Source: a virus
Taxonomy: Duplodnaviria; Heunggongvirae; Uroviricota; Caudoviricetes
DNA length: 26,817 nucleotides
IMG/VR virus record: IMGVR_UViG_2778261176_000016
Direction: 5' to 3' (one strand)
Positions within the stretch are counted from its first letter, which is position 1; each line of letters begins with the position of its first letter. Below the pieces are notes generated by a model. The model was not told where the DNA came from. It searched no databases and saw only the letters and a program-made list of their open reading frames with translations. A program made the translations under genes and the position numbers. This document shows, in pieces, positions 541 through 6,677 of this stretch.

Positions 541-1578
541 TTAACGCTTATCCGCCACCAGTTTGAGCGCGTGTTCCAGCACATTAATGTCTGCACCCGC
601 TTTATGGGCATTTTCACTTAAATAACGCCGCCACTGCCGCGCGCCAGGAATACCCTGGAACAAGCCCAGCATATGCCGGGTAATATGGCCGAGATACGTA
701 CCCTGGCTGAGTTCACGCTCAATGTACGGATACATGGCGCGCACTACCGCCACCGGATCGGCATCGGTATCCGAGGAACCAAAAATCTCTCGGTCTACCG
801 CCGCCAGAATCCCCGGATTCTGATACGCCTCGCGCCCGACCATCACGCCATCCATATGTTGCAAATGCGCTTTAGCTTCTTCCAGCGACTTGATACCACC
901 GTTAATCGACATCGTCAGATGCGGAAAGTCACGCTTCAGTTGATACACACGCGGATAATCGAGCGGCGGGATCTCACGGTTTTCTTTCGGACTTAACCCA
1001 GAAAGCCAGGCTTTACGTGCGTGGATGATGAACATCTCACACTCACCTTTGCCGGAAACGGTGTTGATGAAATCGCAGAGAAATTCATAGCTGTCCTGAT
1101 CATCGATGCCAATACGCGTTTTCACCGTCACCGGAATCGACACCACATCGCGCATCGCTTTCACGCAGTCGGCAACCAGCTGCGCATTACCCATCAGACA
1201 CGCACCAAACATGCCGTTCTGCACCCGGTCAGACGGGCAGCCGACATTCAGGTTGATCTCATCATATCCGCGCGCTTCTGCCAGCTTCGCACACTGTGCC
1301 AGCGCCGCCGGATCGCTACCCCCGAGTTGCAACGCTACCGGATGTTCTTCTTCACTGTACGCCAGGTAATCACCTTTACCGTGAATAATCGCCCCTGTGG
1401 TCACCATTTCGGTATACAGCAACGTATTGCGGGAAAGCAGACGCAGGAAATAACGGCAATGTCTGTCCGTCCAGTCAAGCATAGGAGCAATGCTAAACCG
1501 AGAATTCCAGTAAACACCAGTTTTTTCAGGCATCACGCTGGTTTGATTAATTTTTTGTGTTTCATGATTATCGTGCAT
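541..1578 (-). CDS. dusA: tRNA-dihydrouridine synthase A
   Basis: 345-aa ORF with the Dus signature ([31 protein letters not shown]) and ATG at 1578-1576. It is divergent from the integrase 88 bp away, the arrangement expected for dusA-targeting elements. Confidence 0.9.
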
Positions 1579-1666: not shown

Positions 1667-2764
1667 ATGGCGTACTATAACATAGAGAAACGACTAAAAT
1701 CCGATGGCACACCACGCTATCGCTGTAATGTGATTATCAAAGAAAAAGGTGTTATCACTTACAGGGAAAGCAAAACATTCCCTAAACATGCTCATGCCAA
1801 AACATGGGGCACACAGAAAGTGATGGAATTAGATCTATATGGCATTCCATCATCAAATGCAGTTGACGGACTTACAGTCCGTGACTTACTACACAAATAT
1901 TTAAATGACCCAAATGCCGGAGGTAAAGCAGGCCGTACTAAAAGATATGTGCTGGAACTGCTTATGGATAGTGACATCTCCGCGATCAAACTATCTGAAC
2001 TGACAGAAAATGACGTAATTGAACATTGCAGGCTAAGAAACAACGCTGGTGCAGGTCCAGCTACAGTTAGCCACGATGTTAGTTATCTTGGCAGTGTTCT
2101 GGATGCTGCCAAACCTGTATATGGAATTAATTACACATCAAACCCAGCAAAAGCCGCTCGTCCATATCTACTTAAACTTGGTTTAATTGGTAAATCAAAT
2201 CGTCGTAATCGTAGACCGGCATCTGATGAACTGGACATGCTCATTGAAGGTCTTCAACAACGATCTACACATAAATGCTCAAAAATTCCGTTCGTTGATA
2301 TCCTCAAATTTTCTGTGTGGTCATGTATGCGAATCGGTGAAGTATGCCGATTACGATGGGAGGATCTCGATCAGGAACAAAAATCCATACTCGTAAGAGA
2401 TAGGAAAGATCCACGTAAAAAGGAAGGCAACCATATGAAAGTAGCCTTGCTTGGGGAAGCCTGGGATATCGTCCAACGACAACCCAAAAAATCAGAATTC
2501 ATTTTTCCATATAACAGCACTTCTGTTACTGCGGGATTCCAGAGGGTAAGAAGCAAATTAGGTATTAAAGATCTGCGATACCATGATTTGCGTAGAGAAG
2601 GGGCAAGTCGCTTATTTGAGGCTGGTTTTAGTATTGAGGAAGTCGCCCAGGTTACAGGGCATCGTTCATTAAACGTGCTATGGCAGGTATATACCGAACT
2701 GTATCCGAAATCTTTACATAATCGTTTTGAAGAGCTCCAAAGGAGCAGAAATAAGACCTCTTGA
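1667..2764 (+). CDS. int: Tyrosine-type site-specific integrase (dusA-targeting class)
   Basis: 365-aa ORF; C-terminal catalytic region contains R...HDLRR...GH...Y (DLRYHDLRREGASRLFEAG...VTGHRSLNVLWQVYTELYP). GAGG Shine-Dalgarno 8 nt upstream of the ATG. Position next to the dusA 5' end. Confidence 0.9.
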   Translation: MAYYNIEKRLKSDGTPRYRCNVIIKEKGVITYRESKTFPKHAHAKTWGTQKVMELDLYGIPSSNAVDGLTVRDLLHKYLNDPNAGGKAGRTKRYVLELLMDSDISAIKLSELTENDVIEHCRLRNNAGAGPATVSHDVSYLGSVLDAAKPVYGINYTSNPAKAARPYLLKLGLIGKSNRRNRRPASDELDMLIEGLQQRSTHKCSKIPFVDILKFSVWSCMRIGEVCRLRWEDLDQEQKSILVRDRKDPRKKEGNHMKVALLGEAWDIVQRQPKKSEFIFPYNSTSVTAGFQRVRSKLGIKDLRYHDLRREGASRLFEAGFSIEEVAQVTGHRSLNVLWQVYTELYPKSLHNRFEELQRSRNKTS

Positions 2765-2825: not shown

Positions 2826-3074
2826 ATGCGTATTGAAATCTGCATAGCCAAAGAAAAAATGACTAAAATGCCAACCGGTGCTGTGGATGCGTTAAAGGAA
2901 GAATTAACCCGACGCATCAGTAAACGTTATGACGATGTAGAGGTGATCGTAAAAGCCACCAGCAACGATGGCCTTTCTGTTACACGCACCGCAGATAAGG
3001 ATTCTGCAAAAACTTTTGTTCAGGAGACTCTGAAAGATACCTGGGAATCTGCTGACGAGTGGTTTGTTCACTAA
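2826..3074 (+). CDS. dinI: DinI-family DNA-damage-inducible protein
   Basis: 82 aa; MRIE.IAK...GA.DAL..EL.RRI...LSV...[14 protein letters not shown] matches the DinI family throughout. AGAGGGA Shine-Dalgarno. Confidence 0.85.
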
Positions 3075-3322
3075 TTAACACGTAAAATCGGTAACGGCTG
3101 GAAATCATTCAATACTCGCACTATCGAAAGTTCGCCAGCCAACCGCAGCGCGTTCTTGCATACGACGTGGCTGCGGTCTCAACTCCGTCCCCCACCAATC
3201 ATGATTGGGCAGTACCAGTACAGCACTAGTAAAAACTGGAAATAAGCAGTCTCAGCAAAATACCGGCCAGACGGTGAGAAGACAAAAAAGATTCGCAAAG
3301 TAGCCGCGGCCCTTAGTGACAT

Positions 3323-3422: not shown

Positions 3423-4118
3423 ATGAAAAAGGAAATACTCAAGGCTCTTTGCCCTACATGCGGTGGGTTACGTAACTGCACTGTGCATGGGAAGCTAACC
3501 ACTAGCTGGGAGGATTCCCAATATCCAGTTTATGGGTACCATTACCATCACCTACTCCAATGCAATGGCTGTGATACTGTCTTCTATCACCACAACGAAC
3601 ACTTCAGTGAGCATACTACCCACGAATATCGTGATGGTGAATTTGTAGAAACGCCTATAGATATGATCACTACCTATCCTGCCGCTGAAACATTTCAAGC
3701 TCCGATATGGTTATCCAAGCTTGAATCAGTTGATCGTCAGCTCTTTCAAATATTTAATGAAATGTATTCTTCATATACTTCTGACCATTTCATTCTTTCG
3801 TCCATCGGTTTACGGACGATTTTTGATCGAACTGCTGAACTGTTACAAATTCACCCCGGTTTGCCGCTTGGTGAAAAAGTTGAAAAATTAAAACAAGATG
3901 GAGTCATAGGCGACACTGAGGCATGCGTTATATCTTCAGTAATTGATGCAGGAAACGCCGCCGCACATCGCAGTTGGAGCCCGAATAAAAGTGAGTTCGA
4001 ACAAATGCTAGAAGCTATAGAAAGTTTTGTCCAAAGAACTATCTTGGGCAAAAAATCACTTGAACATATAACCAAACAACTCCCACCTCGGGTTACAAGA
4101 CCTAAAAATAGTGCATAA
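3423..4118 (+). CDS. Hypothetical protein: N-terminal 4-Cys zinc ribbon (CPTCGG...CNGC) and C-terminal helical domain with a GNAAAH motif (possibly DUF4145-like)
   Basis: 231-aa ORF in an AT-rich segment between the SOS module and the tail-fibre end. The only long plus-strand ORF besides int and dinI. No family confidently recognised. Confidence 0.7.
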   Translation: MKKEILKALCPTCGGLRNCTVHGKLTTSWEDSQYPVYGYHYHHLLQCNGCDTVFYHHNEHFSEHTTHEYRDGEFVETPIDMITTYPAAETFQAPIWLSKLESVDRQLFQIFNEMYSSYTSDHFILSSIGLRTIFDRTAELLQIHPGLPLGEKVEKLKQDGVIGDTEACVISSVIDAGNAAAHRSWSPNKSEFEQMLEAIESFVQRTILGKKSLEHITKQLPPRVTRPKNSA

Positions 4119-4144
4119 TCCGCGATCATCAATGTGGCGTAAGG

Positions 4145-4540
4145 TTATGGTTTACTTGCTACAGGGAATTTTTTATACACCGTTGAAATACCCAGATCAT
4201 AAATCAGTGCGACTTGCTGCTGATATATTCCCGATTCAATCAACCTGCCAGCCTGCTCCCATTGTTCTACTGTCAGCTTTGGCTTTCGCACACCGTTCCT
4301 CCCTTCTTGTCGTGCTGCGGCAAAGCCCGCCCTAGTACGTTCGACAATAAGCTCTCGCTCCATTTCAGCCAAGGCACCCATCACATGAAAGAAAAAGCGC
4401 CCCATTGGTGTGCTGGTATCAATTAAATCAGTCAGACTACGAAAGTTGATGCCTCGTTCGCGCAACTCCTCAACCAGAATGACCAGATGCCGCATACTAC
4501 GCCCCAGCCGATCCAGCTTCCAGACAACCAGTGTGTCACC
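4145..4540 (-). pseudogene. N-terminally truncated Gin/Pin/Cin-type serine DNA invertase
   Basis: From GDTLVVWKLDRLGRSM.HL...ELRERGINFRSLTD.IDTS.PMGRFFFHVMGALAEMERELI.ERT.AG..AAR..G..GGR.PKLT...WEQAGRL the ORF matches Gin-type invertases. The first ~55 residues, including the catalytic Ser region (VRVSTxDQ), are absent and replaced by unrelated sequence. Confidence 0.6.
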
Positions 4541-4583
4541 TGCCGATAATGTCACAACTGACTGGCGGGTGGAATTAATGCTT

Positions 4584-4706
4584 GGTGATATCAGCAGTAC
4601 AGATAAAGAAAAACTATCTGCCTGGATAGAATACAAAAAAGAAGTAAAAGCCGTCGACACTTCGACGGCACCTGAGATTAGCTGGCCTGAACTGCCGGAG
4701 GCGTAG
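4584..4706 (+). pseudogene. Remnant of an inverted second tail-fibre-assembly gene (C-terminal ~40 codons only)
   Basis: Plus-strand reading ...GDISSTDKEKLSAWIEYKKEVKAVDTSTAPEISWPELPEA aligns without gaps to the C-terminus of the intact Tfa on the other strand (...GRLKDEELAQYNLWLDYLDALDLVDTSSAPDIEWPTPPAV). The two are convergent with overlapping 3' ends. Confidence 0.45.
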
Positions 4707-5085
4707 GCCATTCAATATCTGGCGCACTGGAGGTATCCACCAGATCCAGTGCGTCCAGGTAATCCAGCCACAAATTATATTGCGCCAGTTCCTCGTCTTT
4801 CAGACGACCAATAGCCGCTTTACCGGGCCACTGCTTGCTGTTAATAAAATCATTTGCAGCACGTATGCGTCCTTCTTTTTCGAGTTCTGCTTCCTGGATT
4901 AACTGTTCTTTAGTTTTCTCAGGTTCGGGAGGGGCTGTGAAATTATTTCCGTCATAGATCCATCCAATATCAACTGCAACACCAGAGATATTAACTGCCT
5001 TAAAATCGGCAAACATATCTCCTGCACCATCCCAAACAACGATATTAACAACAATATTGTTTTTAATTAGTGCGTATCTGTTCAT
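4678..5085 (-). CDS. tfa: Tail fibre assembly protein (Tfa/U-type chaperone)
   Basis: N-terminal IKNNIVVNIVVWDG and C-terminal VDTSSAPDIEWP motifs. Start taken at the ATG at 5085, which overlaps the tail-fibre stop (TAATG). Confidence 0.8.
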   Translation of the reverse strand: MNRYALIKNNIVVNIVVWDGAGDMFADFKAVNISGVAVDIGWIYDGNNFTAPPEPEKTKEQLIQEAELEKEGRIRAANDFINSKQWPGKAAIGRLKDEELAQYNLWLDYLDALDLVDTSSAPDIEWPTPPAVQAS

Positions 5086-6089
5086 TAGCCGTATACCCAC
5101 AAAATCGCCAGACCGTCAGCCCCTGCTCCACCTGACATAGACACCCCGGTAGACCCTGAGCCATAAACAGAGACCGCGCCGCTTCCGCCAGAGCCATTGC
5201 CTCTGGCATTATTTCCCGCCGATGCATTGACTCCCGAACTAATTCCGATTGCCACACCGCCCACTCCGAACTCAGAGTCAGCCCCTTTCCCGCCAAGCGC
5301 ATTTTTATCCGAGAACAGAAATCCAGAGCTTCCACCATACCCGATATGCTGTGCTATCAATTCTGCTCTACCAGGAATGGTGTTATTAGCATTCGGAGAC
5401 GCTGTAGGCCCGCCGGTTGGCAGAACATTAAATGCTGCCCCCTTAGCTCCACCTCTCCCACCAGTAGCAGTAATACCGTCGATAATCGTAGCACCACCGT
5501 CACTTCCATTAGCTCCGGTTGCGGGAGTTGGCACGCCCCCCGCACCACCTGCGCCAATAGTAATATTAATTTTCTGACTGGCATCAACTGTGAATTTTGC
5601 TACCACACGGCTACCTGAATTCCCGCCCTGTCCTGCTGACGCATATCCGGGTTGTACGGTCGTGGAGTTACTGCCACCGCCGCCTCCGCCACCAATCAAA
5701 TCTGCCACAACAAACTTGGCATCTTTCGGCAGTGTAATTTGCCGGGATGTGTCAATCCGGTACACTGCAATGAGTCTTCCTGTTCCATCTCCCAAACCAA
5801 GGTTTTCGAGAGCCGTTTTCACCGTGCCATCCGATTTGATATCGCCAAACGGATTATTGCGGCTTAACAGCAGCGCACGAAGTGCGGTAAGCAGCTGATC
5901 ATGCTGCCCTTTCTCCAGGCTGGCACCGGAGGCCTCCACCACGCTGCAGAGTTCTTCCTGCAACATGTCAAAGTAGTCATCATCCAGATCGGTGGCAGGT
6001 GTGCCGGTCTGGGGGTTACCACGGGTAAAACCGTTCTTACCCGCGCCGAACTTATCCTTCTGCGCGGTTTTCGTGTCTATACGATGCAT
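5085..6089 (-). CDS. Tail fibre protein (glycine-rich)
   Basis: 334 aa; N-terminus [21 protein letters not shown] is typical of tail-fibre and collar proteins. Long Gly/Ser/Ala-rich repeats and the position directly upstream of tfa. Confidence 0.8.
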
Positions 6090-6092
6090 GGA

Positions 6093-6677
6093 TTACTCCG
6101 GATATTTAAAAATTACGTAGGTATGCGACGGGCAGAGTTTGTTAAGCACGCACTCGACAACGGTGTCCCCCCAGATACGCAGTGCGGAATCACAGGGATC
6201 GCCACATGTCATCCAGGTGGTGTTGGTGGCGGCTGGCATGTTGACCTGCCAGTAATACCGCCATTCCGGCGCATTCACAGCGTCAGTACAGGCCGATGAG
6301 CAGGTGAACGTGCTTTTGTCGTATCGCGTGATGGCGGCATCTGGTCTGCCCAGGGCAGCAAGCTGTGCAAGATAAAAATCCTCGTTGATGCCACCCGCCA
6401 GGTTAACCTTCGCATCCAGCCGTTGCTGACGCTGGCGAAGGGTCTGTGTCCCTGCGGGAATACATTCATCCGGCAGGCCGCACAGACGCTCCCAGCGATT
6501 TATCAGTTCGGTGGTGGTGCGCGGATCCAGCTCCCGCATCAGGGCATCCGCACGCTGATGAACACGAGTTAATGACGGTGCCGCACCGGCAATCGCCGGA
6601 TCGCTGGCTGACCACGCCGGACCGGGCGGCAGCAGCGCCGACAACAGACGGATGTAATCATCGTTTGTCACGTCCAT
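6093..6677 (-). CDS. Baseplate/tail protein, Mu gp48 / YmfQ-like
   Basis: 194-aa ORF between baseplate J and the tail fibre with tight gene spacing; recognition-level match to the Mu gp48 family. Confidence 0.7.

Follow-up and report, generated by a model that had tools for sequence, protein, structure and literature searches.

Gene content of the locus

The window, i.e., the whole stretch of 26,817 nucleotides under analysis, is a piece of E. coli chromosome that runs from pspG and dusA into a prophage integrated at dusA (Table 1). There, the integrase gene abuts the 5' end of dusA, which corresponds to the layout described for prophages with dusA-specific integrases (Farrugia et al., 2015, PMC4482086). 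The genes pspG, dusA and integrase are annotated by PGAP in the matching genomes, and at least 80% of the stretch made up of pspG, dusA, the integrase gene and dinI is present in 731 of the 5426 complete E. coli genomes. The DUF4145 gene that separates dinI from the invertase is a conserved cargo of all sister dusA prophages, the N-terminus of its product displaying a CxxC...CxxC zinc-ribbon-like region; a PADLOC scan of this protein and of the neighbouring invertase remnant returned no defence-system match. Concerning virion morphology, the prophage combines an HK97-type head with a Mu-type contractile tail, and its late region looks complete, with holin, endolysin, terminase, portal, protease, capsid, sheath, tape measure and baseplate genes all present. 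As such, a fixed tail fibre could matter to a live phage.

The tail-fibre gene comprises a constant part, common to the window and the sister prophages, and a variable glycine-rich tip, and is accompanied by an intact tail-fibre assembly gene (tfa), the product of which is a proper member of the Caudo_TAP family (E 3.5e-22). A pair of glycine-rich fibre and tfa genes 96% identical to this one is also part of a prophage at argW/yfdC in E. coli HCP4S3_I4 (L007 3486-4885), where it comes with neither an invertase nor a second, inverted tfa gene (tfa') and where acyltransferase genes come next; the fibre module thus circulates among switch-bearing and switch-less prophages. As for the GC-rich hairpin found just past the stop codon of tfa, it is plausible that it constitutes the terminator of the late fibre operon; its sequence falls within the part of the convergent tfa' that codes for the conserved C-terminus.

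Table 1. Position of the genes, gene remnants and sites discussed in the text, numbered from the first nucleotide of the window.
Feature	Position	Strand	Description
dusA	541-1578	-	Prophage integration site, adjoins the integrase gene
Tyrosine integrase	1667-2764	+	Directly beside the dusA 5' end, divergently oriented
DinI-like gene	2826-3074		Downstream of the integrase
DUF4145 gene, 231 aa	3423-4118	+	C-terminal DUF4145 domain (E 9e-10)
Chimeric ORF, 188 aa	4145-4711	-	First 53 codons, antisense of the tfa' remnant; rest, invertase residues 51-185
Invertase remnant	4145-4553	-	Residues 51-185 of a 185-aa Gin/Pin-type serine invertase at 4552-4148; stop codon 4147-4145
Probable deletion junction, TGCCGATAATGTC	4541-4553		13-bp microhomology of the invertase gene (antisense strand) and tfa'
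tfa' remnant	4542-4706	+	Last 54 codons and stop of a 131-aa P2-type Tfa; no start codon of its own
Terminator-like GC-rich hairpin, GCCGTCGAAGTGTCGACGGC, then T-run	4650-4669	-	Just past the tfa stop, inside the chimeric ORF
Intact tfa, expressed	4678-5100	-	135 aa from ATG at 5085 or 140 aa from GTG at 5100
Tail-fibre gene, 334 aa	5085-6089	-	Constant N-terminal part, about aa 1-96 (6089-5801); variable glycine-rich tip (5800-5085)
Orphan gix/pix-type site, TCTCCCAAACC-AA-GGTTTTCGAGA	5788-5811		Constant/variable boundary of the fibre gene, codon ~97
Mu gp48/YmfQ, baseplate J, gp46, gp45, tape measure, sheath		-	Past the fibre gene
HK97-type capsid, protease, portal, terminase, endolysin, holin		-	Late region of the window

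Remnants of an invertase and of a second tail-fibre assembly gene

When the intact invertase of a sister prophage, namely that of E. coli T309.Ta3 (L001), is aligned to the window by tblastn, only its residues 51-185 are recovered, at 97% identity (E 3e-88). In a Pfam search with the 188-aa ORF that includes this remnant, the Resolvase profile is covered only at positions 59-144 of 145 (E 7e-31) and is followed on the C-terminal side by a match to HTH_7 (E 3e-10), while residues 47-181 of Gin (PDB 3UJ3) align with the remnant (E 4e-61), which makes it a close relative of Gin. Profile search, Gin alignment and tblastn alike bear out the first-pass annotation, where the minus strand had been read as encoding a Gin/Pin-like invertase deprived of its catalytic N-terminus. 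With two intact invertases as queries, residues 1-50 gave no significant match in the 26.8-kb window, in any frame of either strand, the best candidate (25801-25673) reaching 29% identity with an E of 0.11; an intact N-terminus in another frame, which would have spoken against the truncation, was thus not found. The missing residues include the catalytic Ser9 and the motif YVRVST, and the start codon and native upstream region are absent as well. As such, the remnant lacks the N-terminal catalytic domain with its serine nucleophile (Ser9/10, YxRVS) by which Din serine invertases are recognised. Within what is left, a G138V substitution turns the linker into GVRKP, where the glycine of GGR(K/R)P is invariant in three intact invertases and in Gin.

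On the opposite strand, the tfa' remnant matches Caudo_TAP (PF02413) at positions 77-131 of 131 (E 2e-13) and, in the P2-like phage Cartapus, has its counterpart in residues 78-131 of a Tfa of 131 aa; with a partial profile match and no start codon, it does not qualify as a member of the family. It is convergent with the intact tfa and their 3' ends overlap by 29 bp, as convergent tfa and tfa' likewise do in intact switches (L001 3992-4020; Cartapus 3138-3166). Both the profile and the Cartapus match agree with the earlier description of this plus-strand frame as the C-terminus of a second, inverted tfa gene facing the intact one. Gene calling in the source assemblies (L008-L010) reports the chimeric ORF, which runs through both remnants, as a Resolvase plus HTH_7 protein without any truncation flag.

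Intact relatives and the deletion junction

The prophage of the window is also present at dusA in E. coli T309.Ta3, with flanks 98-99% identical to those of the window, a stretch from the DUF4145 gene to the invertase 96-98% identical, and integrase, DinI, DUF4145 and invertase 3' part 96-99% identical. The two elements have in common the integration site, the constant fibre part and the baseplate genes, but the T309.Ta3 prophage possesses the full invertase, both repeats, the alternative tip S'v and the full tfa', and the variable cassettes differ, i.e., a gp53-like tip in T309.Ta3 versus the glycine-rich tip of the window. In the intact sisters, the order is invertase, gixR, S'v, tfa', tfa, Sv, gixL, Sc, and in T309.Ta3 it takes the form of an intact 185-aa invertase, a promoterless S'v fragment, tfa', tfa and fibre. 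The best inverted repeat of this locus, AAACCTTGGTTTGGGAGAAG and its complement, is 20 nt long with arms 1794 nt apart, one lying 62 bp upstream of the invertase start and the other within the fibre gene, at the very point from which different fibre alleles become homologous; the P segment of e14 is bounded by nearly identical repeats (PMC12529663). The DUF4145 gene, a full-length invertase gene and gixR are contiguous in 33 of the 5426 complete E. coli genomes. Comparison with related prophages had been advised in the first-pass annotation, and the sister dusA prophages do hold an intact switch. The tfa' allele of the window also exists as a full gene in intact switches, and judging from the annotated gene order it is silent in Cartapus and expressed in a P2-like prophage of strain H15, from which it follows that the module occurs in both orientations in nature.

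In the window, the stretch homologous to the invertase gene reaches 4553 and the one homologous to tfa' sets in at 4541, leaving the 13-bp overlap TGCCGATAATGTC. This 13-mer is found exactly in the invertase gene of T309.Ta3 and in tfa' of Cartapus, and the invertase gene of Cartapus has a copy with one mismatch, on the same strand and 835 bp upstream of the tfa' copy; being on the same strand, the two copies form direct repeats whenever tfa' is silent. No filler or foreign DNA is present at the junction, both flanks reaching the 13-mer uninterrupted, which is the kind of junction that one deletion between short direct repeats leaves. What the window lacks in comparison with the sister prophages is precisely the 5' portions of the invertase gene and of tfa', together with gixR and S'v in between, which amounts to a deletion of 822 bp according to the layout of Cartapus or about 1.1 kb according to that of T309.Ta3. 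The exact parent, i.e., a dusA-type invertase beside this very tfa' allele, was found in none of the 5426 complete E. coli genomes, hence the size of the deletion and its single-step origin are reconstructions. It had initially been proposed that the junction lay between about 4541 and 4584; the location holds, and the limits of homology narrow the interval to 4541-4553. The broader proposal, namely a former switch of the Mu G type that lost a fibre module and the invertase 5' end in one deletion, is supported by the sister prophages, the 13-bp microhomology and the lack of filler.

Recombination sites and locking of the switch

In the fibre gene of the window, identity to the constant fibre part of T309.Ta3 starts at 5788, where the orphan gix/pix-type site is located. 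This site matches the repeat of the e14 P segment, CCTTCTCCCAAACCAA (PMC12529663), at 15 of 16 bases, and it is the one gix-like site observed in 26.8 kb against 0.02 expected by chance. A second gix site was found in the window neither with the core motif nor with the 24-nt degenerate site at up to three mismatches, and an inverted-repeat search of positions 4100-6200 returned short chance pairs only. The search for gix-like repeats suggested at first pass thus ended with a single site at 5788-5811 and no partner in the window. Considering two of the elements that define an invertible segment, i.e., two inverted gix-type sites on the one hand and two alternative tips, each with its tfa, on the other hand, the window exhibits one site where T309.Ta3 has the pair, and one Sv-tfa pair plus 54 tfa' codons, the alternative tip S'v being absent from the window.

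In experiments, the P segment of e14 is inverted in trans by PinE, PinQ and PinR (PMC12529663), because of which the loss of the invertase in cis would not by itself lock the switch. The lock would rather consist in the absence of a partner site and of a second fibre cassette, as judged from the sites and cassettes left in the sequence: a single site without an alternative cassette cannot give rise to inversion, whichever invertase acts in trans. A fixed host range would follow from such a lock of the fibre. In gin and hin, the Fis-dependent recombinational enhancer is located in the 5' part of the invertase coding sequence; by analogy, an enhancer in this canonical position would have been lost together with the first 150 nt of the invertase gene. 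As the locus illustrates, it is the count of recombination sites, and not the presence of an invertase gene, which decides whether a switch of this type is locked.

Proposed history and alternative explanations

Very probably, a single deletion between TGCCGATAATGTC repeats killed a tail-fibre switch of the Gin/Cin/Pin type and left non-functional DNA in its place. In this scenario, an ancestor prophage would have possessed such an invertible switch, and a deletion between the direct copies of TGCCGATAATGTC carried by the invertase gene and by the silent tfa' would have fused invertase codon 51 to tfa' codon 78, presumably by short-homology slippage or illegitimate recombination. The invertase upstream region, its start codon and residues 1-50 with the catalytic serine would have been removed, along with gixR, the alternative tip S'v, the first 77 codons of tfa' and, presumably, the enhancer. 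The fibre would thereby have been frozen in one form, its constant part being followed by the glycine-rich tip and the cognate Tfa, with one orphan gix site inside. Everything that inversion needs would thus have been lost through a direct repeat of 13 bp that the invertase gene happened to share with a silent chaperone gene.

Alternatively, the deletion could have come about in another way. Since Cin acts on quasi-cix sites, as known from the P1 literature, the invertase itself could be thought to have deleted the segment by recombining two directly oriented quasi-gix sites, the more so as both breakpoints lie inside the switch and as the invertase gene of strain CT29 was independently truncated about 5 bp away, which might point to a preferred site. 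This course of events is nonetheless highly improbable: the AAACC-NN-GGTTT core is absent from both parental junction sequences, its only match in the window, even when one mismatch is allowed, is at 5794-5805, and the junction is a 13-bp identity and not a 2-bp crossover with 12-bp half-sites. An invertase-mediated deletion was rejected on the ground that neither breakpoint has a gix-like core. An origin in several steps, where the silent cassette was replaced by foreign DNA and a deletion occurred later on, or else the import of the scar by homologous exchange of the fibre module, appears unlikely. The ClpP-like cargo gene of CT29 at almost the same invertase position, the same scar in an unrelated prophage beside pphA, and a tfa' allele of P2 type versus an invertase allele of the dusA-prophage type would all fit such a course, but the junction includes neither filler nor foreign DNA, with flanks running into the same 13-mer, and the import of a finished scar would change the place of the event, not its nature. 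As to an artefact of assembly or a chimeric contig, which the abrupt change of homology alone could evoke, its probability is practically nil, as the identical arrangement is present in independent NCBI and Logan assemblies and the same junction in two complete genomes; with four independent contigs and two complete genomes, the junction is not an assembly artefact. The single deletion between direct repeats thus stands as the preferred reading.

Regarding what this deletion left behind, it could be argued that the chimeric ORF is a working gene, encoding a catalytically dead fragment with E-helix and HTH that would bind gix and modulate inversion by a resident Pin. Its frame is open from the ATG across the junction, HTH_7 and residues 51-185 are retained at 97% identity, and the ORF is identical on four contigs. 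Such a role is very unlikely, as intact Cartapus, in which the frame has stop codons, already has the ATG and most of the open antisense frame; these were therefore not created for the chimeric ORF. Moreover, no Shine-Dalgarno-like sequence was seen ahead of the ATG, a terminator-like hairpin sits between the ATG and the invertase part, G138V strikes the conserved minor-groove linker, the copy of strain BCE049 is broken by indels and stop codons, and the native upstream region of the invertase is deleted. The chimeric ORF is an accidental read-through, not a gene. That small amounts of a truncated invertase, translated from an internal start or as the product of the chimeric ORF, interfere with the Pin invertases of co-resident prophages is extremely unlikely; if they did, a dead gix-binding protein would bias the P-segment inversions that are reported to affect the adsorption of phage T2 (PMC12529663). 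In a related way, the orphan gix site could be a target for Pin-mediated exchange with other prophages.

Distribution of the scar and other routes of decay

The exact chimeric ORF is present on four independent contigs, with the same gene neighbours, among the matches listed, in GCA_012846515.2, GCA_013064025.1 and SRR7613587. The configuration of the window at dusA was not found among the 5426 complete E. coli genomes. Exact-pattern scans of contigs from species-representative genomes and from metagenomes gave no match to the junction pattern, and with empty scans of this kind these two sets are uninformative on the distribution.

In two complete E. coli genomes, namely BCE049 and MFDS1022581 (L004/L005 3709-4260), the same 13-bp scar is part of an unrelated prophage, one located next to pphA whose baseplate is of the DUF2612 type. 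There, PGAP labels the remnant as a pseudogene, "recombinase family protein, missing N-terminus," and additional lesions are visible, i.e., a 33-bp deletion by which KLDRLGRSMRH is lost, an 8-bp tandem duplication of GTGGAATT and one added A. The 3' half of this invertase remnant is a different allele, which makes the module a mosaic, and the presence of the scar in an unrelated prophage means that it moved laterally with the fibre module. From the G138V substitution in the window and from the 33-bp deletion, 8-bp duplication and 1-bp insertion in the BCE049/MFDS1022581 copy, the remnant appears to be under no selection. On the evidence of these sequences, the scar would be older than either of the elements hosting it and would be decaying neutrally.

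Other routes of decay are encountered among related prophages. In strain CT29 (L006 2740-3600), the invertase of a dusA prophage was truncated independently at a point equivalent to about 4548 in the window, i.e., about 5 bp from its breakpoint. Past the cut come about 110 bp of unrelated DNA, then a ClpP-like protease gene (L006 2859-3410) and another tfa' fragment than that of the window. That independent breakpoints fall twice at codons 49-51 may be due to chance (about 2% for a 5-bp window in 558 bp) or to a local hot spot; the CT29 breakpoint hints at such a hot spot, or at a history more complex than simple slippage. Strain 873.10 (L002 2346-4310) displays a third route, where PGAP annotates a frameshifted invertase, one remaining tfa and a partial fibre gene.

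The practical value of these observations is in annotation, as the chimeric ORF would falsely flag a live invertase and a phase-variable fibre and is hence a trap for surveys of invertases and of phase-variable loci. Their biological significance is small; the locus offers a fully worked example of how a host-range switch dies.

Comparison with known systems

Programmed inversions in tail-fibre genes are well catalogued (PMC9881135), and what is described here is a known and ordinary kind of prophage decay; added to the first-pass annotation are the exact junction with its microhomology, the orphan site, a lock attributed to the missing partner site and not to the missing invertase, and the lateral spread of the scar. 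The P segment of e14 (pinE, stfE/stfP, tfaE/tfaP), the G segment of Mu with Gin and the C segment of P1 with Cin rely on invertases of the same family as the remnant of the window, related genes being named pinE by PGAP. The window also shares their layout, in which the constant fibre part is followed by a gix site, a variable tip, tfa and a convergent tfa', but retains only half of such a system: the catalytic N-terminus, the second site and the alternative tip are missing, and tfa' is reduced to 54 codons. The closest likeness in the kind of decay is found in P1-like plasmids, e.g., pSvP1 and pTZ20_1P, where cin is truncated and the C segment lost or altered, and where tail switching was judged by the authors to be presumably lost (PMC6906374). 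As in the window, an invertase gene is truncated and an invertible segment is damaged or lost; the lesions of these plasmids are, however, IS-mediated and spared other portions of the gene, which in one of them is the N-terminal catalytic domain (PMC6906374), whereas the lesion of the window would be a clean microhomology deletion that leaves the C-terminal two-thirds of the invertase.
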